Below, piece by piece: positions 6,304 through 59,178 of a DNA stretch of 64,000 nt (position 1 is its first letter; each line of letters starts with the position of its first letter). Origin of the DNA: an uncultured Bacilli bacterium (GTDB lineage: Bacteria; Bacillota_I; Bacilli_A; RF39; UBA660); assembly GCA_934148535.1 (NCBI GenBank), contig CAKPDF010000003.1, positions 29,515 to 93,514 of the forward strand. Reading direction: 5' to 3'. The notes below the pieces were generated by a model, which saw nothing but the letters and a program-made list of their open reading frames with translations, searched no databases and was not told where the DNA came from. The position numbers and the translations under genes were made by a program.

Positions 6304-6407
6304 ATTATCACCTCAAATTGCACACTAAATATTATAGCATAAAATTAAAATAAATGTATAATAATTTACTAAAAATTAAGCAAACAAACGTTTGCAATAT
6401 ATTTTCA

Positions 6408-6486
6408 AAAAAAGACGCACACAATAAGAGGTTGTTAAAGCTGCTATCTTCCAATCCTGACTTGGTTCCAACATTATTATTGCGTC
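6408..6486 (-). ncRNA. ffs: small (4.5S-type) signal recognition particle RNA
   Basis: The minus strand reads GACGCAAUAAUAAUGUUGGAACCAAGUCAGGAUUGGAAGAUAGCAGCUUUAACAACCUCUUAUUGUGUGCGUC followed by a U-run. It contains the conserved domain IV core ACCA-GUCAGG-nnn-GGAAG-nn-AGCAGC with a GGAA tetraloop. The closing stem is GACGCA/UGCGUC. It lies upstream of dnaX, as scr does in B. subtilis. Confidence 0.85.
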
Positions 6487-6492
6487 AATAAA

Positions 6493-6521
6493 ATAATACA
6501 ATAATAGTAAAAAAAAAGCAA
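6493..6521 (-). promoter_or_regulatory. sigmaA-type promoter of the SRP RNA
   Basis: Minus strand: TTGCTT (6516-6521), a 17-nt spacer, TATTAT (6493-6498), then 6 nt before the G at 6486. Confidence 0.45.
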
Positions 6522-6570
6522 GTAATTATTAATAAAAAATAAGTTTTTTTTAGTTTTTAAAAATTTAATT

Positions 6571-6639
6571 ATTTCCCAACATCAATTTTAATTTTTCGAT
6601 TATTTCCCAATAGTATTTTTAATTTTTTTAATATTTCCC
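6571..6639 (+). repeat. three phased ATTTCCC half-sites (Noc-site half) with 31-bp spacing
   Basis: ATTTCCC occurs at 6571, 6602 and 6633. Each sits inside the unit ATTATTTCCCAAnnnnATTTTTAA, and all are in the same orientation. Confidence 0.7.
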
Positions 6640-6673
6640 AAGGCAAATTTTTAAAATTCAAAAAAATATTTTA

Positions 6674-6689
6674 TGTTTCACGTGAAACA
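6674..6689. promoter_or_regulatory. parS site 1 (perfect TGTTTCACGTGAAACA)
   Basis: A 16-bp perfect palindrome identical to the Firmicute ParB/Spo0J consensus tGTTnCACGTGAAACa. Confidence 0.8.
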
Positions 6690-6815
6690 TCACTTTAACA
6701 TTCTCTAAATTAAATAAAAGAATAAAAAAATATATATATTTATAAGCAAAAAAATATGTAAAAATACAATTAAAATAAAATAACATATTAGAATATAGAA
6801 TACAACATTTTTTTT

Positions 6816-6831
6816 AGTTTCACGTGAAACA
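6816..6831. promoter_or_regulatory. parS site 2 (AGTTTCACGTGAAACA)
   Basis: 15/16 match to the palindromic consensus. The mismatch is at the outermost base. Confidence 0.7.
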
Positions 6832-6917
6832 TAACAAAAAATATAGATTAAAGCAAAAATAATTATAAAATATATTATATAAAAATATTAAACATAAAAT
6901 ATAACATAAAAGAACCA

Positions 6918-6933
6918 TGTTTCACGTGGAACT
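6918..6933. promoter_or_regulatory. parS site 3 (TGTTTCACGTGGAACT)
   Basis: Core GTTTCACGTGGAAC. The T/C alternation at the N position is as in B. subtilis parS. The outer base is mismatched. Confidence 0.65.
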
Positions 6934-7085
6934 TAGGGATAAATAATATCATTAAAATACAAAATTGCATGACAAAAAAGTTAAAAACAATTACTCTTAG
7001 CATCAAATAACTATGAAAATGTTTAGTAATAAGAAAAATGCAAATATTTTTTTTATTTTTGAAGCAAATACAAATATACAGAAAA

Positions 7086-7101
7086 CGTTCCACGTGAAAC
7101 A
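7086..7101. promoter_or_regulatory. parS site 4 (CGTTCCACGTGAAACA)
   Basis: Core GTTCCACGTGAAAC is identical to the B. subtilis spo0J-internal parS core. Confidence 0.7.
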
Positions 7102-7147
7102 TAAATTAATATTGAAATAACTATTAACTATAATATTAATAGATTTT

Positions 7148-7161
7148 ATTCTCTGAGAAAT
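7148..7161. promoter_or_regulatory. decayed NBS-like palindrome (ATTCTCTGAGAAAT)
   Basis: It aligns positionally with the NBS palindromes of the two younger repeat units, but it has 4 substitutions in the CCCGGG core. Confidence 0.35.
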
Positions 7162-7187
7162 AATAATTTTATTATAATTTTATAATT

Positions 7188-7224
7188 ATTTTCAAGCTAA
7201 TTTTTTCAAATTTAATTATTTTCC
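7188..7224 (+). repeat. two decayed half-sites (ATTTTCA 7188, ATTTTCC 7218)
   Basis: The flanks (..CAAGCTAATTTTTT.. and ..CGACAnTGATTTTAAA) are homologous to the half-site units at 7871 and 7902. Confidence 0.5.
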
Positions 7225-7329
7225 GACACTGATTTTAAATATTTAAATACTAAAAAAATAGAATTAGTCAAAAAAACTATATTTACTTTGAACTAAATAT
7301 ATATAATTTAAAAATAATAAAATATTAAA

Positions 7330-7345
7330 AGTTCCACGTGGAACA
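7330..7345. promoter_or_regulatory. parS site 5 (AGTTCCACGTGGAACA)
   Basis: The 14-bp perfect palindrome GTTCCACGTGGAAC fits the parS consensus. Confidence 0.7.
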
Positions 7346-7485
7346 TAACTACATAAAAATACATACTATTATAATAAATAATTAAAATATTAAATATTAT
7401 TTTTAGATTTAAAAAGTATAATAAAAAATATATTACTAAATTGAAAAATATAACTTAAATCAAGATAATTAATTTTAAATATTAA

Positions 7486-7494
7486 TTATCAACA
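7486..7494 (+). promoter_or_regulatory. DnaA-box-like TTATCAACA inside repeat unit 1
   Basis: This is the same 9-mer variant that dominates the oriC clusters flanking dnaA. Confidence 0.4.
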
Positions 7495-7512
7495 GATTTT
7501 TTAATCTATTTT

Positions 7513-7526
7513 ATTTCCCAGGAAAT
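7513..7526. promoter_or_regulatory. NBS-like palindrome ATTTCCCAGGAAAT (1 mismatch to the Noc site)
   Basis: 13/14 match to the B. subtilis Noc-binding sequence ATTTCCCGGGAAAT. Confidence 0.55.
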
Positions 7527-7547
7527 AATAATTTTGAATTTTAAATT

Positions 7548-7585
7548 ATTTCCCGAACTATTTTTTTAAAATTCGATTATTTCCC
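7548..7585 (+). repeat. two phased ATTTCCC half-sites (7548, 7579)
   Basis: Spacing is 31 bp. They share orientation and flanks with the other half-site units. Confidence 0.65.
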
Positions 7586-7653
7586 GACATTAATTTTTAA
7601 TATCTAATTAAATTAAATAAATATATATATTTTAAAAATAATGAAATGTTTAA

Positions 7654-7669
7654 TGTTTCACGTGAAACA
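7654..7669. promoter_or_regulatory. parS site 6 (perfect TGTTTCACGTGAAACA)
   Basis: A 16-bp perfect palindrome identical to site 1. Confidence 0.8.
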
Positions 7670-7808
7670 TACTACATAAAACATATAATATTTTAATAGA
7701 TAATTAAAATATTAAATATTTATTTTAGATTTAAAAAATATAATAAAAAATTATATTACTAAATTGAAAAATATAACTTAAATTAAAATAATTAATTTTA
7801 AATATTAA

Positions 7809-7817
7809 TTATCAACA
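7809..7817 (+). promoter_or_regulatory. DnaA-box-like TTATCAACA inside repeat unit 2
   Basis: Positional homologue of 7486-7494. Confidence 0.4.
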
Positions 7818-7835
7818 GATTTTTTAATCTACTTT

Positions 7836-7849
7836 ATTTCCCGGGAAAT
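7836..7849. promoter_or_regulatory. exact Noc-binding-site palindrome ATTTCCCGGGAAAT
   Basis: 14/14 identity to the published B. subtilis NBS consensus. The flanking T/A extends it to a 16-bp palindrome (7835-7850). Confidence 0.65.
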
Positions 7850-7870
7850 AGTAATTTTGAATTTTTGATT

Positions 7871-7940
7871 ATTTCCCAAGCTAATTTTTTAAAATTCGAT
7901 TATTTCCCGACATCAATTTTAAAAAATCAAATTATTTTCC
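7871..7940 (+). repeat. three phased half-sites (ATTTCCC 7871, 7902; decayed ATTTTCC 7934)
   Basis: Spacing is 31-32 bp, all in the same orientation. Confidence 0.65.
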
Positions 7941-7966
7941 AAACAAATTTTTAAAATAAAAATTAG

Positions 7967-17335: not shown

Positions 17336-19090
17336 CTAACTTTTCCACTCCACCATCCACTTGTTATACACAGATGCATTTGAACTCTGTGGTTCTGGGT
17401 TAGGTAATTCCATTTTTACAATCATTGGTATCTTCATCATTCTACCAAAAGCAACACAAGTACCAGATTGTAATGATTTTTGTTTTTCAATAACATCAGC
17501 ACTGATATTAGGAACCATCTTTCTAATATATTCCAAATCAGTAGGATGTGTAATTTTAAATATTAAAAAGTTACTACACTGAGATATAACCGATTCTGAT
17601 AATTCAGTAGGTCTTTGAGTAATTAAATCTAATACTACTCCAAACTTACGCCCCTCTTTAGCAATTCTTTCAAATATATTATATCCCAAAATATTAATAT
17701 CGTTATCTCTTTGAACATATCTATGAGCTTCTTCTAACATAAGATGAATAGGCATAGCACCTCTTTCTTGAAGTCCTTTACTAAATTTAAATATTAATCT
17801 ACAATATACCTTAACAATAGCTTTAGCAAACCTATCATCAATATCCTCAAGAACAAAATTAATTATTTGAGCTCTCTTTGTTTGGCCAACCATAACTATA
17901 TCTGTGATAAATTCAGAAATAGAAATAAATCTACCATAATCAAAATATTTCTTATTAGAACTATTATTTAAAGAATGTAATTTTACTTTTAAAGCAGTAG
18001 CCTCACTATAAGATTTTTCATTTAATAAAAGTCCCTCTGAAATTAAAGCAAAATTTAAAGCAACTTCCAAATCATCTAAAGTAAAATATATAGGAACATA
18101 GTCTTCATTCCATTTAGTATTGTTATCAACGAACTGTTGAATATATCCAGTAATTAAAATTCTTTCTACAAACTCTCCCTTACTATCTATATCAAAACAT
18201 TTTCTAAATTGTCTAGTATAACCAACACCAGGAACATCAACATCTAAGTTTAATTCTGGACTATTACAATTAGTAAGTATAGAAAATATCTGATCTCTTA
18301 TTCTAGAAGGAGTTTGGTTAGTATATAATACAGATATAATAGCAGAAGCAATTAGATGATTTTTATATTTAGCGGATTCCTCATCTTTTCTAGCAAATAC
18401 TGAAACTAAACTAAGCATTTTTTCAATAATAGATAATTGGGTATATTCAGTAGCATCTAATAAATTAGCATAATCATCAACTGATAATAGCCATAATGGT
18501 AATTTTATTATCTCACTATTTCCCTCACCACTTGTTGAATACATCTTGTAATTAAAATTAGGATTATATTGATTAATACTCTTGAAAGCATTATCATATT
18601 CATTTGTATTGTTAAAAATAAATATATTACTGTTAAAAGGAATTTTTCCTTTCATAACAAATAAATTTTGAACTAATCTTGCAACACCATAGGTTTTACC
18701 ACTACCAGTATTACCAAATATTGCACTATGATTACTCCACATATCATCAATATTAATTTTAATAGGAAAATTATTATAAAGAGGAGATAAACCTAACATC
18801 ATAGATTTATCGTCATTAGCACCTGTTAATTCTGATAATTCATCTTCGTTGATAAGTCTAATTTTAGTATTTAAACTAGGTTTTCTAATAATACCTCCAA
18901 AAAATTTTCCTTCATGAAACTCTCCAAGAAAACTAATTTTTACCTCATCCCCATCGATTTCCTCAATTTCACCTAATATTTTTTTATTATCTTCAAAAAT
19001 AACATTCATATTAAGTAAATCATCTGTAGTAGTATTTTCAATTTTAACCATTGCAAAATTCTTACTAACCGCGGTTATTTCTTTAAACAT
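17336..19090 (-). CDS. HerA/DUF87-like (FtsK-HerA superfamily) P-loop ATPase
   Basis: Walker A GNTGSGKTYG and Walker B-like IHLMLEEAHRY. The C-terminal ITQRPTELSESVISQCSNFLIFKITHPTDLEYI is typical of HerA/DUF87. The N-terminal region resembles a small beta-barrel (HAS-like). Confidence 0.65.
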   Translation of the reverse strand: MFKEITAVSKNFAMVKIENTTTDDLLNMNVIFEDNKKILGEIEEIDGDEVKISFLGEFHEGKFFGGIIRKPSLNTKIRLINEDELSELTGANDDKSMMLGLSPLYNNFPIKINIDDMWSNHSAIFGNTGSGKTYGVARLVQNLFVMKGKIPFNSNIFIFNNTNEYDNAFKSINQYNPNFNYKMYSTSGEGNSEIIKLPLWLLSVDDYANLLDATEYTQLSIIEKMLSLVSVFARKDEESAKYKNHLIASAIISVLYTNQTPSRIRDQIFSILTNCNSPELNLDVDVPGVGYTRQFRKCFDIDSKGEFVERILITGYIQQFVDNNTKWNEDYVPIYFTLDDLEVALNFALISEGLLLNEKSYSEATALKVKLHSLNNSSNKKYFDYGRFISISEFITDIVMVGQTKRAQIINFVLEDIDDRFAKAIVKVYCRLIFKFSKGLQERGAMPIHLMLEEAHRYVQRDNDINILGYNIFERIAKEGRKFGVVLDLITQRPTELSESVISQCSNFLIFKITHPTDLEYIRKMVPNISADVIEKQKSLQSGTCVAFGRMMKIPMIVKMELPNPEPQSSNASVYNKWMVEWKS

Positions 19091-26637: not shown

Positions 26638-27465
26638 ATGAAAAAAAATAATAATACAATAATATTAATAATAATACTAATAATATTATTAATAGCAACC
26701 TCTATATTAATTTACGTTAAAAGTAATAACAATAACAAAGCATCATCAACTATTTCAAGTAAAATTACAGTTTCAAGTTTAATAAAAAATTCCAAAGTAT
26801 TCAAAGCAAATAGCGAAGAAACTAATGATGAAATAGGATTATATAAGTTTAATGATGATGGAACATTCGAATATTCAAATGCCCAAACAATTACAAAAGA
26901 AAATCAAATTTTAACTATGAAAGGTAAATATAAAATAGAAAATAATACTCTAATACTTACAATAGAAGATAAAAGAATAACGGCACAAGGTTATTTAAAA
27001 ACAAACGAAGATAGTAGTAATTTATGTGAGTATAAAATTGAAACAGATAATACTGTAGAAGAACAAAAATATAATTTAAAAGTAATAGATAATAATTATC
27101 TAAAAGGTGACAACTTGACTTTATATCCTTCTTCAAATAATAATGAAGATAACTTAGATAATAATACTTTGAACATTCCAAGATGTTTTGAAAATTACAC
27201 AATAGAAGAAATAAAGACCAAAGCATTAGATTATTTCAAAAAAAATCAATTGGAAAAATCGGGATTAGATCAAGAAACAGAATTTACTATAGGAGTTTCT
27301 TTAAATAAAAATGATATTCCAGAAGAATATAATAACTATGATATGTATATAGAAATAAGGCATATTTATAAAGGACACGACACTGTTGACGCAAGATATT
27401 TCATAAATGCAGAAAATTTAACAGGTATAGATGTAAATAATCAAGAAATAAATTTAAATAACTAA
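26638..27465 (+). CDS. membrane-anchored hypothetical protein
   Basis: A single N-terminal TM (IILIIILIILLIATSILIY) is followed by an Asn/Ser-rich linker and an extracytoplasmic domain. No family was recognised. A TTGACA-17-TAAAAT promoter lies near 26549. Confidence 0.5.
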   Translation: MKKNNNTIILIIILIILLIATSILIYVKSNNNNKASSTISSKITVSSLIKNSKVFKANSEETNDEIGLYKFNDDGTFEYSNAQTITKENQILTMKGKYKIENNTLILTIEDKRITAQGYLKTNEDSSNLCEYKIETDNTVEEQKYNLKVIDNNYLKGDNLTLYPSSNNNEDNLDNNTLNIPRCFENYTIEEIKTKALDYFKKNQLEKSGLDQETEFTIGVSLNKNDIPEEYNNYDMYIEIRHIYKGHDTVDARYFINAENLTGIDVNNQEINLNN

Positions 27466-27470
27466 AAATA

Positions 27471-27501
27471 AATCAATGCTAAAATAATGCATTGATTTTT
27501 T
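27471..27501 (+). terminator. terminator after the 275-aa membrane protein gene
   Basis: AATCAATGC...GCATTGATT stem followed by TTTTT. Confidence 0.6.
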
Positions 27502-27592
27502 CAATTTCTAAAAAAATTAATTCTAACTACTTGAAAAAATAAAATATTTATAGTATCATTAAAGAGAATAAAGAGAATTGAGAGGGATTGTT

Positions 27593-29308
27593 ATGCAAGA
27601 GAATAATGAAATTAAGTATATTGATCTTGTTGATATTATTCCAAATAGACTACAACCTCGAACAGAATTTGATGAAGAAAAACTTAATGAATTAGCAACT
27701 TCTATCAAGCAATATGGAATAATAAATCCATTATTAGTGCGCAAAGTTGGAAATAAGTATGAAATTATAGCAGGTGAAAGAAGATTTAAAGCTGCTAAAA
27801 TAGTAGGACTAGAAAGAGTACCAGTAATTATTTCTAATATGGATGAAAAGACAAGTGCTGAAGTAGCAGTAATAGAAAATATTCAAAGGCAAGATTTATC
27901 TGCTCTAGAAGAGGCAAGGTCATATCGCAAATTATTAGATCAAGGTAATATTACTCAAGAGCAATTAGCAACCAAAATGGGAAAGAGTCAATCTACTATC
28001 GCTAATAAAATGCGTTTGTTAAACCTATGTGATGAAGTTCAAGAAGCATTAGATAATAATCAAATATCAGAAAGACATGCTAGAAGTTTGTTACAACTAA
28101 AAAATATAGATGATCAAAGAAATGCTTTAGAGAAAATAATAAAAGAAAGATTAACTGTAAAAGCAACAGAAAATCTTATAAAAGAAATATTGCAATCAAA
28201 AACCCTTAACTCTCAAGAAAATATGCAACAAAATAAAACATCTTTACCAGGTAAAGAAGAAAATTTTACTGATACAATATATGGTAGTGATGTAGTAAAT
28301 ATTGCAGATTTAAATAAAAAAGAATTAGAAAAGGAAAATGATAATATGAATAACGAACAAAATACACAAATGAATAATAATATGCCTAATCCAGGAATAG
28401 TCAACCAGCAACCTAACGAACAAGTACAACAACCTGCTTTTGGTGGAAGATTCTTCCCATCATTAGAAGATAGTGAAGTAAATGTAAATTTAGCAAATCC
28501 ATTTGCACAACAACAACCAGCTCAAGCTCAACCAATGATGGCAAATTTAGTTGATACACCACAACAAACTCCAGTAGCCCCAACAATTCCATCATTCGTA
28601 ACAGACAGCACAACTGTTCCAAGTAGTAATACAGTATCTCTAGATAGTTTAAATAAAGAACCAGTTATGCCTACTATTAACCCATTACAACAAAATTTTG
28701 AAAGTCCAATATCAGAACCTGTTAATAATATAGTAGCAGAACCAATTATTAACCCAATTGCTTCTTCTGCACCAACACCAGGACCAATTCCAGAAAGCCA
28801 ACCAAATCCATTATTTGGAAATAATGTTCCAGAACCACAACCAGAGCCAACTACCCCAACAATTCCAAATTTACCAAATGTGGAAAGTAATTCTTTTGGA
28901 CAAATGACACCTAATATGGAAACACCAGTACAACCTACAATACCAACTCCAGAACCAATTATTCCAGAGCCTGCTGTTGCACCACAACCTATAATGGAAC
29001 CATCAGCACCACAACCTATAGTAGAACCAACCTCACCAATAACTCCTGATCCAGTTATACCAGATATTCAAATGCCACAAAATAACTTTACAGTGCCATC
29101 TCCAGAAGTTCCTACGCCAGAACCAGCTCCAATAGTTGAAAAAACACCAGAAGTAGCACCAACAATAAAAACTACTGATAATATTATAAATGCAATAAAT
29201 GCTATAAAAAATTTAGGATTAAGTATAGAGTCAATTGGATATAAAATAAATATCAGCGAAGAAGATACCCCTACTTCTTATAAAATAACAATTGAATTAG
29301 AAAAGTAA
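27593..29308 (+). CDS. noc: Noc/ParB-family CTP-switch DNA-binding protein with a long Pro/Gln-rich insertion
   Basis: IPNRLQPR box and GERRFKAAK (the GERRxRA CTP motif). HTH GKSQSTIANKMRLLNL...ISERHARSLL resembles remembered Noc, not Spo0J. Residues ~200-520 are low-complexity P/Q/N/E. The C-terminal ...YKITIELEK resembles the Noc C-terminus. The ATG at 27593 follows a GAGAGGGA RBS (the track start is TTG 27578). Confidence 0.8.
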   Translation: MQENNEIKYIDLVDIIPNRLQPRTEFDEEKLNELATSIKQYGIINPLLVRKVGNKYEIIAGERRFKAAKIVGLERVPVIISNMDEKTSAEVAVIENIQRQDLSALEEARSYRKLLDQGNITQEQLATKMGKSQSTIANKMRLLNLCDEVQEALDNNQISERHARSLLQLKNIDDQRNALEKIIKERLTVKATENLIKEILQSKTLNSQENMQQNKTSLPGKEENFTDTIYGSDVVNIADLNKKELEKENDNMNNEQNTQMNNNMPNPGIVNQQPNEQVQQPAFGGRFFPSLEDSEVNVNLANPFAQQQPAQAQPMMANLVDTPQQTPVAPTIPSFVTDSTTVPSSNTVSLDSLNKEPVMPTINPLQQNFESPISEPVNNIVAEPIINPIASSAPTPGPIPESQPNPLFGNNVPEPQPEPTTPTIPNLPNVESNSFGQMTPNMETPVQPTIPTPEPIIPEPAVAPQPIMEPSAPQPIVEPTSPITPDPVIPDIQMPQNNFTVPSPEVPTPEPAPIVEKTPEVAPTIKTTDNIINAINAIKNLGLSIESIGYKINISEEDTPTSYKITIELEK

Positions 29309-40500: not shown

Positions 40501-40901
40501 ATAATTGCTTAGATAGAAAGAGTATGTAAAATAAGTGAATTTTATGAAATGTTTATCATTTCCTATATTCTCTAAATATTATAAATTAATTATTTATTTA
40601 ATATTTTAAATAAAATTAATTAATATAAATAATCATTTAGTTTATATAGTTATTATAAAATATTATTTATTTCATATTAGTTCTTATGGAAGAAAAATCA
40701 TTAGAGATGATTCTTATCTCCACTAAGTAAAGCAATTGTTTTAAGAAAGAAAAACTTATAAGATAAGAAAATTGAACTAGATACTGATAATATCTAAATA
40801 ATTTAATCAATTTTTACTCATCAAGTTATTATATCCAAACGATAATATATTTAAATAATATATTATGATTAGGGTTTGATATAATGACTTGTAATATAAA
40901 G

Positions 40902-41026: not shown

Positions 41027-42493
41027 TTATAAAACTATTGCAATCATGTTATTAGAGCCTTTATTAATTACCTTAGTTAAAGTTTGACCAAGTTTATATC
41101 TGATATTATCAGGCATCATAGATAATTTAGCTTGTATTCCCTCTTGAACAATAACATCTAAACTTCTACCAAATATTTCACTCTTCCAAATATCATTATT
41201 ATCATCCTTAGTAAGATAATCGATAAGTTCCTTGCTCTGAAGTTCACTACCAATAATAGGTTCAAAAGTAGATTCAACTTCGACTTTAATCATATGTATA
41301 GAAGGAGCTTTAGCTTTCAATTTAACACCATACCTAGAACCTTGTTTAATTATCTCTGGCGTTTCTAACTTCATATCTGCTAAAGTAGGAGTAGCAATAC
41401 CATATCCAGTCTGTTTAACCATTTTCAAAGCACCCTTAATTTGATCATATTCCTGTTTTGTTTCATTAAACTCTTGGAATAACGCTAACATTTTAGCACG
41501 TGATCCAATATCTGTCCCAATTACTTCATTAAGAATCTGATTATATAACCCATTAGGAGCTTCTAATTGAATAGTAACCTCACCCAAAGATGCATCAACA
41601 TTTGATATGTATGCCTTAGAAATAACTTCACAATTTCTAAATCCTTCCGTAATACTATCTATATCCTTTAATTTATTAACCTCTACTACACTCTCTTTAA
41701 TCTTACTAATATATTCTTTTTTCAAATAATGATTAGGACTTAAAATAGTAATCCATTCAGGCATATTAACTTTAACCTCTTCGATAGGAAATTCATATAA
41801 AGCTTCCTTTAAAATTCCATACATATCTCTTTCTTGCATATTTTCAACACTAATAGGAATAACAGGAACCCCATACTTTTCTTTTAAATTAGAAGCCAAC
41901 TTTTCAGTTTCAGGAAGCATAGGATGAACAGAATTTAAAATAACAATAAAAGGTTTATTAATACTCTTTAATTCTTCAATTACACTTTCCTCAGCACTGA
42001 CATAATCAGATCTATCAAATTCTCCAATAGAACCATCAGTAGTCATCACAATTCCTATAGTAGAATGATCACGAATAACCTTTTCAGTACCAATTTCCGC
42101 AGCTTCAACAAAAGGAATAGCCTCTGAAAACCATGGAGTCATAACTAATCTAGGACCATTTTCATCTTCATATCCTTTAGCAGAATCTATAACATACCCA
42201 ACACAATCAATCATCCTTATATTAGCGCTAAAATCATCTATTTGAATTTTAGCAGCAGTAGCAGGAATAAATTTAGGCTCAGTAGTCATAATAGTCTTAC
42301 CACCAGCAGATTGAGGAAGTTCATCTAATGCCCTTTTTCTTTCAGATTCATCACTTATATTTGGGATAACTAAACTCTCCATAAATTTCTTAATAAAAGT
42401 ACTCTTACCACATCTCACAGCGCCTACTACCCCTAAATATATATCACCACCACATCTAGAAGCAATACTCTTCATAACGTCTATTTTTTCCAT
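41027..42493 (-). CDS. spoIVA: stage IV sporulation protein A (spore coat basement-layer ATPase)
   Basis: IYLGVVGAVRCGKSTFIKKFME Walker A, plus full-length similarity to the remembered SpoIVA pattern (LPQSAGGKTIMTTEPKF). Confidence 0.93.
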   Translation of the reverse strand: MEKIDVMKSIASRCGGDIYLGVVGAVRCGKSTFIKKFMESLVIPNISDESERKRALDELPQSAGGKTIMTTEPKFIPATAAKIQIDDFSANIRMIDCVGYVIDSAKGYEDENGPRLVMTPWFSEAIPFVEAAEIGTEKVIRDHSTIGIVMTTDGSIGEFDRSDYVSAEESVIEELKSINKPFIVILNSVHPMLPETEKLASNLKEKYGVPVIPISVENMQERDMYGILKEALYEFPIEEVKVNMPEWITILSPNHYLKKEYISKIKESVVEVNKLKDIDSITEGFRNCEVISKAYISNVDASLGEVTIQLEAPNGLYNQILNEVIGTDIGSRAKMLALFQEFNETKQEYDQIKGALKMVKQTGYGIATPTLADMKLETPEIIKQGSRYGVKLKAKAPSIHMIKVEVESTFEPIIGSELQSKELIDYLTKDDNNDIWKSEIFGRSLDVIVQEGIQAKLSMMPDNIRYKLGQTLTKVINKGSNNMIAIVL

Positions 42494-57447: not shown

Positions 57448-59178
57448 ATGAAAAAAATTAAAGAATTATTTAGAAATAATCCCATGTTAATATCTGGTAT
57501 ATTAATAGTTATTATTTTAACAACATATTATATTTATTCAAAAAATACATATTATAAAGTTAAAAAAATAAATTCTAAAAAAGATATATTTGAAAATACT
57601 ACTATAAAAGTAGAAAAAAAAGACCTAGATAAAGCATCAAATAGCACAAAGGAAGGTGAAGAATATTTAATAGAAGGAGATTTTTTAAGTGATAATATCG
57701 TAACAGATGAAGAACTAAAAGCTATGGAACATAATACAAAAGTATTACAATTATTAGTGGATTCAGCAGAAGAAAATGAAGTAATTACCCTAAAAGAAGG
57801 AGTATATTATTTTACCAAAGGAGGAAGTAATACCAAAGGTAATGAAGACTACGTAATTAAGCTTTCAAACAACGTAAATATAACAGGAGCAGGAACTTCC
57901 AAAGAAATATCAACAATATTAAAACCATATGCTAAAGAAAATACAATTGAATATGGTTTAGATATGTTTTATTATAATGAACTAATTGACTCACAAGGAA
58001 CTAATCCGCAATATTTAGAAAATGTAAGTTTTAGCAATTTCATAATAGATGGTATTAGTGTTAGAGGTAAAAATTACAATACATCAGGAAAAGGATTTAT
58101 GATAAACTTATGTAGAAATTGTTTTTGGAACAATATTACTATTCAAAATACCGACGCCACAGGCTTTGGTATGGATAATATTATAAACGGAAAAATTTCT
58201 AACAGTACTGCAATTAATTGCGGGAAAAATGCTAGTGCTAATTCTGAAGGGGCATCTGGATTTGGAATAGGTACTGGATATAGTAATGAAGAGTCAGTAA
58301 TAATAGAAAACTGTAAATCAATCGGAAATAAAAAATATGGGTACTTTTTTGAACATCAAGGAATATTCAATAGATATTATCAAGCAAATTCATCGAAAGG
58401 ATTTATCGTAAGAAATAGCACCGCTACAGGTAATTTATATAATTTTGGAGGAAGAAGAGCCAATGATACAAGTTACATAAATTGTACTTCTACCACAGAT
58501 ACTACAGACCAAGATGGTACTCCAATTAATTATACTAAACAAGACATATATTTTGATGATCAATCAAGAAGAACTTTAATTCAAAATTTTCAGATAGACA
58601 AAATTCCATTTAATGATGTAAACCAGAATAGCTATTATTATAAAGCTATAGAATGGGCTTATAAAAATAGTATTACATATGGAACTGATAAAAATAATTT
58701 TGGAATTGGAAAAGAAATATCTAGAGCAGAAGCAATAACTTTACTATGGCGTTATTCCAATAGACCTGGTGATGTTCTTGTAGACAATTTAGTTAGTACT
58801 AACAGTCTAAAACAATCAAATATAGATACTGGATTTATAGATGTATCAAAAGATGCATGGTATGCACAGGCAATTAAATGGGGAAAAGAACAAGGAATAA
58901 CTAATGGAACAACAGTAGAAAATTTTAGTCCAAATTCATCAATTACTAGAGCACAATTTGTTACAATGTTATATAGGTATGCAGGAAGTCCAAAAGTAAA
59001 TTCCACAAATAATTTTGCTGATGTTAAATCAAATTCATCATATTATGATGCCATAAATTGGGCTGCTAATAAAGGAATAACTAATGGAACAACTACAACT
59101 ACCTTCTCACCAGATAAAAACTGTACTAGAGAAGAAGTAATAACTATGTTATATAGATATAATAATATTATAAAGTAA
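57448..59178 (+). CDS. secreted/anchored beta-helix protein with three C-terminal SLH domains
   Basis: N-terminal TM/signal sequence. The central region has repetitive N..I.N / G.G turns. Three repeats of F.DV....YY..AI.WA...GIT.G......F.P....TR.. match the SLH pattern. Confidence 0.65.
   Translation: MKKIKELFRNNPMLISGILIVIILTTYYIYSKNTYYKVKKINSKKDIFENTTIKVEKKDLDKASNSTKEGEEYLIEGDFLSDNIVTDEELKAMEHNTKVLQLLVDSAEENEVITLKEGVYYFTKGGSNTKGNEDYVIKLSNNVNITGAGTSKEISTILKPYAKENTIEYGLDMFYYNELIDSQGTNPQYLENVSFSNFIIDGISVRGKNYNTSGKGFMINLCRNCFWNNITIQNTDATGFGMDNIINGKISNSTAINCGKNASANSEGASGFGIGTGYSNEESVIIENCKSIGNKKYGYFFEHQGIFNRYYQANSSKGFIVRNSTATGNLYNFGGRRANDTSYINCTSTTDTTDQDGTPINYTKQDIYFDDQSRRTLIQNFQIDKIPFNDVNQNSYYYKAIEWAYKNSITYGTDKNNFGIGKEISRAEAITLLWRYSNRPGDVLVDNLVSTNSLKQSNIDTGFIDVSKDAWYAQAIKWGKEQGITNGTTVENFSPNSSITRAQFVTMLYRYAGSPKVNSTNNFADVKSNSSYYDAINWAANKGITNGTTTTTFSPDKNCTREEVITMLYRYNNIIK

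Follow-up and report, generated by a model that had tools for sequence, protein, structure and literature searches.

How could a protein of the Noc lineage operate when the short tether between its DNA-binding and dimerisation domains has given way to some 325 disordered residues? The question is raised by a gene for a 571-residue ParB-family protein in a 64,000-nucleotide stretch of the genome of an uncultured Bacilli bacterium (GenBank assembly GCA_934148535.1, contig CAKPDF010000003.1, positions 29,515 to 93,514; the whole stretch is called the window below). A first-pass annotation of this DNA had described the product as a double-length Noc-like protein with mixed specificity residues and no membrane-targeting helix. 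The present analysis suggests that the gene product is probably a Noc-lineage ParB paralogue of a low-GC (about 25 %), spore-forming, uncultured gut bacterium of the Bacilli, and the most probable reading is that of a Noc clamp in which a basic tether of about 9-22 residues has been exchanged for a long, acidic linker bearing conserved motifs. The coordinates of all features are collected in Table 1.

The gene starts at ATG 27593, 7 nt downstream of the sequence AGAGGG. The sole in-frame alternative start, TTG 27578, would add five residues and is directly preceded by an in-frame stop, so that the stop, the ribosome-binding site and the promoter-like site 5' of the ATG leave no room for an N-terminal helix encoded from a start further upstream. 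At 27475-27505 an inverted repeat with a T-run behind it could be made out by eye; a terminator scan found none there. The gene looks monocistronic. The conserved boxes PxxQPR, GERRxRA and ENxQR are all present, in columns invariant in both homologue alignments; the cytidine triphosphatase (CTPase) domain carries them as IPNRLQPR (residues 16-23), GERR (61-64) and, at its C-terminal edge, ENIQRQDL (95-102). The other motifs quoted in the first-pass annotation were also found (GERRFKAAK at 61-69, GKSQSTIANKMRLLNL at 130-145, ISERHARSLL at 158-167 and the C-terminal DNIINAINAIKNLGLSIESIGYKINISEEDTPTSYKITIELEK), and phmmer against all six-frame open reading frames (ORFs) agreed with it that no other ParB-family ORF lies in the window. 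From the conservation of these motifs, the protein probably binds and hydrolyses CTP and closes into a clamp. For comparison, one genome per species was scanned, which yielded at least 80 loci and 128 ParB-family proteins, the window's own species not being among them. In the 80 loci listed, canonical Noc-position proteins have 258-299 residues, so "double length" is an accurate description; their linkers comprise 9-22 residues, with 4-8 Lys/Arg and 0-3 Asp/Glu.

Profile scores, structure-database matches, fold, neighbour-joining tree, type of C-terminal domain (CTD) and gene order agree in placing the protein with Noc rather than Spo0J, as the first-pass annotation had proposed from the motifs. 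By these comparisons it belongs to the ParB/Noc superfamily and, within it, to the Noc lineage; it falls short of Noc in two features, the N-terminal helix and the curated profile score. The best NCBIfam match was the Noc model TIGR04285 (283.2 bits; 177 bits for the generic ParB model), and a sequence search of the PDB returned Noc of G. thermoleovorans (7NFU, 201 bits), Noc of B. subtilis (174 bits) and Spo0J of B. subtilis (170 bits). The top four Foldseek matches were all Noc structures, with E values down to 2e-21 among Noc and ParB structures and TM scores of 0.91-0.94 to the complex of the Noc DNA-binding domain (DBD) with a Noc-binding site (NBS), 6Y93. The last 46 residues, already thought to be Noc-like, align with Bacillus Noc C-termini and scored 19.3 bits on a hidden Markov model (HMM) of canonical Noc CTDs versus 9.4 bits on a Spo0J-CTD HMM. 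In the tree (128 sequences, 197 columns), the proteins with the residues Q-K-x-R at the specificity positions discussed below formed one split, within which the long-linker proteins made up a clade of their own (bootstrap 0.76). The sister of this clade was the Holdemania filiformis protein in the Noc position (258 residues), followed by Bacillales Noc. The protein is thus placed with Noc and not inside Spo0J, with moderate support.

Gene order points in the same direction. The ancestor of Firmicutes has been inferred to possess an origin cluster with noc, parA and parB among its genes (PMC8136486), and in four metagenome-assembled genomes labelled "uncultured Bacilli" (L005-L008) the order is rsmG, long Noc-like gene, soj, spo0J, the Spo0J proteins bearing RMNG residues and an N-terminal KRRALGRGLEELF peptide. 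Across the 80 loci, every paralogue upstream of soj has Q-K-x-R and every one downstream has R-x-x-G, and the ParA-binding motif (L/F/I)G(K/R)G(L/F/I) occurs in all Spo0J downstream of soj. The window protein lacks this motif and has Q133 and R161 in place of R173 and G201. In most relatives the Noc-like gene directly follows rsmG. In the window it also follows rsmG, with a strain-variable ORF between the two; soj-spo0J do not lie downstream, and a class A penicillin-binding protein (PBP) gene stands directly 3' of the Noc-like gene here and in L001, L003 and L009. The intervening ORF (26638-27465) encodes an N-terminally membrane-anchored protein of 275 residues in the window and in L081-L085, and the same slot holds unrelated minus-strand ORFs in strains 86-89 % identical (L093:2-742 and L094:1654-3303). 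A conserved membrane partner encoded in this slot was considered and rejected, since the ORF is replaced in L093 and L094 and the slot is empty in most relatives.

Four positions distinguish the DNA specificity of Caulobacter ParB (R173/T179/A184/G201) from that of Noc (Q/K/K/R) (PMC7383237). The first-pass annotation had given this code correctly, and its reading of Q-K-N-R could be confirmed (Q133, K139, N144 and R161). Its conclusion of mixed specificity did not hold. Position 184 is occupied by K, H, Q, N, S, T, R, A or L in the Noc-position paralogues of the 80 loci, QKNR is also found in normal-length proteins of Holdemania filiformis and Paenibacillus, and one Lys at 179 or 184 is enough to license the reading of A1 by Q173 and of C6 by R201 (PMC7383237). 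In the mutational scan, R173 was kept in all parS-specific variants, about 91 % of the NBS-specific variants had Lys or Arg at 179 or 184 and only about 19 % at both, and dual binders mostly carried Thr or Ser at 201 (PMC7383237); QKNR itself was not found in the text supplements of the deep scan. All six shared DNA-contact residues are kept (Q122, G130, K131, S132, N138 and R164, mapped against PMC7383237). As position 184 is variable and a single Lys suffices, NBS specificity is to be expected, and the protein is predicted to be a plain NBS binder.

The protein is no one-off and proved to be an ordinary member of a large family. A sequence 98 % identical (P0001), flanked by the same genes, is found in six or more independent human gut metagenome assemblies (Hadza and others), in which the gene encodes 571-579 residues, and a word-indexed search returned more than 100 homologues of 322-623 residues with both Pfam domains. 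An exhaustive phmmer search with residues 1-200 was run against 1.84 billion cluster representatives, and the best 150 matches were analysed: they have 242-848 residues (median 475), 146 of them reach at least 320, the Noc-CTD HMM matches 129, and the charge is net acidic in 145 of 145 linkers longer than 40 residues. All 120 close homologues are long. Their linkers range from 74 to 376 residues, reaching about 600 in the wider family, which comprises at least 150 clusters at 50 % identity and is abundant in metagenomes from the guts of humans and animals. An assembly artefact, frameshift, chimera or pseudogene, as the unusual length and composition might alone suggest, can be regarded as refuted, because the same gene and context recur in those independent assemblies, the conserved CTD follows in frame after variable linkers in more than 100 homologues, and the ratio of nonsynonymous to synonymous substitution rates (dN/dS) is below 1 in all parts. 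The database name of members is only "ParB/RepB/Spo0J family partition protein", and the literature searched, which was not exhaustive, contained no account of Noc or ParB proteins with a long linker; a survey of the ParB-CTPase fold states that Noc retains the canonical architecture (PMC12704722). What is new here, as judged from the sequences, is a linker that is shared by the whole clade, invariably acidic, subject to purifying selection and furnished with conserved motifs. As a separate observation, Spo0J of a Clostridium and a Lachnospiraceae species (L034:9491-10777 and L072:1002-2288; 406 and 429 residues) contain an acidic low-complexity insertion of 120-150 residues between the N-terminal ParA-binding peptide and the CTPase domain, indicating that disordered expansions recur in ParB-family proteins of gut Firmicutes.

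Sixteen residues, and not the ten or so counted before, precede the P-N-R-x-Q-P-R box; the accompanying claim that neither an amphipathic helix nor the ParA-stimulating LG(R/K)GL peptide is present was borne out. In B. subtilis the N-terminal helix is needed for Noc function and can be substituted by a heterologous one (PMC4331003), and it is under CTP control (PMC8429893). All Bacillales proteins in the 80 loci begin with MKxxFS(R/K)(F/L)FG(L/F)xE(K/R). The lack of a helix is, contrary to the emphasis first placed on it, nothing special to this protein: it is missing in 120 of 120 close homologues, only 14-18 residues and no helix precede the PNRxQPR box in 142 of the 150 best representatives, and the short proteins found in the Noc position in Clostridia and Erysipelotrichales (Holdemania) share this condition.

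The low-complexity insertion, first placed at about residues 200-520, is real and spans residues 201-525. Its composition is dominated by Pro (19 %), Asn (11 %), Gln (9 %), Thr (8 %) and Glu (8 %), with 9 Lys/Arg against 37 Asp/Glu, and its GC content is above that of the domains in a genome of 25 % GC. In an AlphaFold2 model computed with an 80-sequence alignment, the predicted local distance difference test (pLDDT) is about 90 in two stretches, residues 4-210 and 528-571, and drops below 50 at residues 212-527. Short conserved islands could be delineated in the window subclade (16 sequences that share 50-93 % identity with the window protein) and are confined to the DBD-proximal 120 residues or so, while residues 337-525 keep composition only. 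Motif a includes the sole helix predicted in the linker, a weak one at 237-247. Motif b, where the hydrophobic moment of the linker is highest, has the subclade consensus PAFGxRFFPSLEDxxxNxNLxNP and the family consensus (N/G)(K/R)FF(P/N)(S/F)LED(E/Q)xxN-hydrophobic. A generalised form, [RKN]FF-x(1-4)-[LFMIY][EDS][ED] (consensus N-(K/R)-F-F-(N/P)-(F/S)-L-E-D-E-x-x-N-M), was present in 44 of the 150 best representatives versus 0.6 expected from shuffled linkers, an enrichment of about 70-fold, and the [RKN]FF core in 82 versus 10.2 expected. Four representatives of 812-848 residues (P0260, P0353, P0354 and P0356) have the same architecture with linkers of about 570-600 residues, and several of them carry SFG(K/R)FFD(P/Q)xx(F/M)DD(E/D) and INPGF(V/M)DVDKIKExAxD, which shows the FG(K/R)FF-acidic motif to extend across widely diverged members. 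An origin of the linker by tandem repetition was rejected, as the only repeats found were a 9-nt unit and one of 27 nt present in 2.2 copies (28979-29038).

Comparison of strains that share 86-89 % identity gave dN/dS values of 0.03-0.09 for the N-terminal and DNA-binding domains, 0-0.12 for the CTD and 0.34-0.51 for the linker, which also holds 20-30 indel columns. The linker is, on these sequence comparisons, translated, length-polymorphic and, because of its dN/dS, under relaxed yet purifying selection. The synonymous rate was itself lower in the linker (about 0.15) than in the N-terminal domains (0.27-0.60) when the window gene (27593-29305) was compared with L093 and L094, possibly through codon constraint on the Pro/Glu-rich sequence or through intragenic recombination. 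The highly variable length of the linker, the indels, a dN/dS five to ten times that of the domains and the lack of sequence conservation over residues 337-525 are also what would be seen if the protein worked like the short helix-less Noc-like proteins and the linker were a tolerated, functionless insert, and AT-rich genomes commonly contain low-complexity runs rich in Asn. Such neutral expansion of a spacer is nonetheless judged unlikely: no member of the clade has returned to a short linker (the minimum is 74 residues versus 9-22 outside the clade), the charge has flipped from basic to acidic in every one of the 145 linkers, the enrichment in Pro opposes the AT bias, dN/dS is clearly below 1, and islands of motif are conserved, motif b being strongly enriched.

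The resemblance of motif b to the Bacillales N-terminus (FSRFFGLGEKE) raises another possibility, namely that (G/N)(R/K)FF(P/N)xLED is the equivalent or descendant of the Noc helix and the protein a true membrane-tethering occlusion factor. The N-termini in L010-L075 follow a similar pattern ([S/N]-[R/K]-[F/L]-F-[G/N/P]-[L/F]-x-E), the helical hydrophobic moment of the motif window is 0.55 versus 0.43 for MKHSFSRFFGL, and the success of a heterologous helix in B. subtilis implies that exact sequence and context are not critical (PMC4331003). A regular expression shared by both, drawn up post hoc, retrieved two Paenibacillus Noc N-termini among 2610 ORFs, a non-independent test that provides only a lead. 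On the other hand, a motif HMM retrieved no Noc N-termini above noise, and AlphaFold2 predicted no helix at motif b, whose central Pro, single basic residue and acidic tail are unfavourable for anionic membranes. Moreover, the motif is missing in at least 45 % of the family representatives, and the CTP-controlled release of the helix (PMC8429893) could not operate from the linker. A relocated membrane anchor is therefore held to be improbable.

Candidate binding sites for the protein lie near the origin. The first-pass annotation had placed the gene next to an array carrying both site types; the array exists, but it is found 20 kb away, at about 6550-7960, and is not adjacent. It contains all six parS-like palindromes of the 64-kb window (0.15 expected), two of them perfect, and ten of the 13 TATTTCCC octamers of the window fall within 6570-7908, compared with 2.9 expected for the whole window. 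These ten half-sites, which include the palindrome arms (about seven lie outside palindromes), are in direct orientation and often 31 bp apart, and a module of about 323 bp (parS, NBS and two half-sites) is repeated twice (7397-7600 and 7720-7923, 88 % identical). Two independent assemblies, L090 and L091, preserve the array; no such sites were seen in the 20-kb loci of L001-L009, which stop short of the equivalent region. We infer that the 571-residue protein binds this array, and the location of the NBS sites, 8-10 kb from dnaA and beside parS, favours a role in organising the origin region rather than in nucleoid occlusion proper. In its co-clustering of NBS and parS, the array departs from the arrangement in B. 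subtilis.

Neither a second ParB nor a ParA/Soj ORF was found in the window or in the 10 kb flanking it on each side (about 84 kb around oriC). This result, the PBP gene standing in the place of soj-spo0J in the window, L001, L003 and L009, and the interleaving of parS and NBS in one array could be taken to mean that soj-spo0J have been lost and that a sole centromere protein serves both types of site. That is very unlikely, given that Gln at 173 was incompatible with parS in every parS-specific variant and natural ParB tested, that dual binders mostly have Thr or Ser and not Arg at 201 (PMC7383237), and that the protein lacks a ParA-binding peptide. The parS sites, two of them perfect and four near-perfect in a genome of 25 % GC, further argue for a dedicated R-x-x-G ParB, and a separate parS-binding, canonical Spo0J is expected elsewhere in the genome.

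The exchange of a short basic tether for a long acidic linker thus stands as the probable reading, and the following course of action can be proposed. The protein would dimerise through its CTD, nucleate on sites of NBS type (among them the array's two NBS palindromes and additional TATTTCCC half-sites), bind CTP, close into a sliding clamp and spread. The long acidic linker would decouple the two DBDs from the dimerisation domain, giving the clamp a very large lumen, and would behave as a flexible tether or brush repelled by DNA. The motifs of its proximal 120 residues or so (IYGxDVVxIxDLNKKELEKE, (G/N)(R/K)FFPSLED and QPMMxNL) may recruit a partner or surface, a contact that would replace the one made by the Bacillus N-terminal helix with the membrane.

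Several observations weigh against this proposal. The TIGR04285 score of 283.2 bits is under the curated cut-off of 315, the split between Noc and ParB has a bootstrap of only 0.52 in a simple neighbour-joining analysis, and every functional step is drawn by homology. The distal 190 residues of the linker, without sequence conservation and with many indels, would look alike under the drift of a neutral spacer. The motifs are missing in many members of the family, including L001-L009 and an abundant group of 360-380 residues, and so cannot be the universal reason for the linker; in addition, no motif was docked onto the folded domains in the AlphaFold2 model. Spo0J itself was not located in the window or the 10 kb to either side, and a profile search with the Spo0J of L005-L008 returned only their close relatives. 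A bolder version may also be put forward, although it is doubtful: Noc would have been converted from a clamp that binds the membrane into a scaffold near the origin, loaded on the composite NBS/parS array, with DBDs on separate half-sites and the linkers forming an acidic brush or condensate, and (K/R)FFxxLED together with its neighbouring motifs would dock a division, polar or membrane partner as a relocated or convergent substitute for the helix, possibly in a RacA-like anchoring of the origin during sporulation.

Some neighbouring genes give further context. A SpoIVA gene (41027-42493, minus strand) indicates that the organism is an endospore former. A HerA/DUF87-type ATPase of 584 residues (17336-19090, minus strand) is encoded between dnaA and the rnpA-yidC-jag-mnmE-mnmG-rsmG block, and a protein with three S-layer homology (SLH) repeats at 57448-59178 (plus strand). 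Just past the right end of the window lies the gene of an FtsK/SpoIIIE-family ATPase of 1521 residues (L087/L088 10727-15292); L088 has a WXG100-like gene in the vicinity, an arrangement suggestive of type VII secretion.

Table 1. Positions of the Noc-type gene, its parts and other features in the window (HTH, helix-turn-helix; SRP, signal recognition particle).
Feature	Position	Strand	Basis or remark
Long-linker Noc-type ParB-family gene, 571 aa	27593..29308	+	Stop codon 29306-29308; ORF call, Pfam, NCBIfam
Promoter-like TTGAAA-17-TATCAT	27531-27559	+	Consensus match only
Ribosome-binding site AGAGGG	27581-27586	+	Consensus match only
ParB N-terminal CTPase-fold domain, residues 6-98	27608..27886	+	Pfam PF02195, 107 bits; pLDDT about 90
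HTH DNA-binding domain, residues 100-200	27890..28192	+	Pfam PF17762, 117.5 bits
Intrinsically disordered linker, residues 201-525	28193..29167	+	Composition, AlphaFold2, alignments
Linker motif a, IYGxDVVxIxDLNKKELEKExxNMNNE, residues 229-256	28277..28360	+	Subclade alignment
Linker motif b, PAFGGRFFPSLEDSEVNVNL, residues 281-300	28433..28492	+	Subclade alignment, family motif counts
Linker motif c, QPMMxNLVD, residues 313-322	28529..28558	+	Subclade alignment
Linker island IPxFV, residues 332-336		+	Subclade alignment
Noc-type C-terminal (dimerisation) domain, residues 526-571, one helix and two strands	29168..29305	+	pLDDT about 90; CTD HMM
Non-coding origin-proximal array, candidate loading region	6550..7960	.	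Between SRP RNA gene and gyrA
NBS palindromes (14-mers)	7836; 7513		7836 perfect; 7513 with 1 mismatch
Six parS-like palindromes	6674, 6816, 6918, 7086, 7330, 7654		Two perfect, four near-perfect
Small SRP RNA upstream of dnaX	6399-6496	-	59.8 bits
PGK RNA motif	40706-40797	+	67.6 bits
dnaA	15621-17006	-	

With Noc of B. subtilis and G. thermoleovorans (TIGR04285; 7NFU, 7NG0, 7OL9 and 6Y93), the window protein shares the CTPase domain, the HTH, a Noc-type CTD, the Q/K/R residues and 47-51 % identity over 200 residues, and its gene likewise follows rsmG at the origin, with NBS-type sequences present. Unlike B. subtilis Noc, it has no N-terminal membrane helix, an acidic linker of about 325 residues versus about 12-20 basic ones, Asn rather than Lys at 184 and no soj-spo0J downstream, and it stays below the TIGR04285 cut-off; in the 64 kb examined, NBS are clustered by parS near oriC and not scattered. 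There is also a close likeness to short Noc-position paralogues such as that of Holdemania filiformis (L013, 258 residues, QKNR), which is sister to the clade, has Q-K-x-R and no N-terminal extension, and occupies the same gene position. The short paralogues of Erysipelotrichales and Clostridia differ in having basic linkers of 14-22 residues without the linker motifs; no characterisation of them was found in the literature searched. Superfamily, fold, CTP motifs and probably the sliding clamp are common to chromosomal ParB/Spo0J, whose R173/G201, LG(R/K)GL peptide, extra C-terminal CTD helix and adjacent parA are missing here.

More distant systems offer partial parallels. In FtsZ, a disordered C-terminal linker of variable length and conserved composition acts as a tether that presents a short conserved docking peptide. 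The parallel is one of analogy only, as the proteins are unrelated and the window protein has its motifs at the domain-proximal end, with a folded domain following. KorB of plasmid RK2 has disordered segments much shorter than the window linker; it is a plasmid transcriptional repressor as well as a partition protein and uses different DNA sites. KorB is similar in being a ParB-family clamp that keeps disordered segments in a functional complex and is modulated by a partner, KorA (PMC5577506, PMC11790492).

For now, the long-linker Noc family, whose hosts are uncultured, appears as a well-defined lead rather than a discovery. Models of the Noc/ParB CTP switch assume a short tether between DBD and dimerisation domain that sets the size of the lumen and, for Noc, an N-terminal helix released by CTP. 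By comparison, the long-linker family keeps the DNA-reading residues of Noc without the helix, on a tether 5-40 times longer and of opposite charge that carries conserved, putative docking motifs. The family raises the questions of how occlusion or another role is achieved helix-free and what the linker motifs bind, and it lets one ask how the length and charge of the tether affect sliding, the bypass of roadblocks, bridging and condensation.

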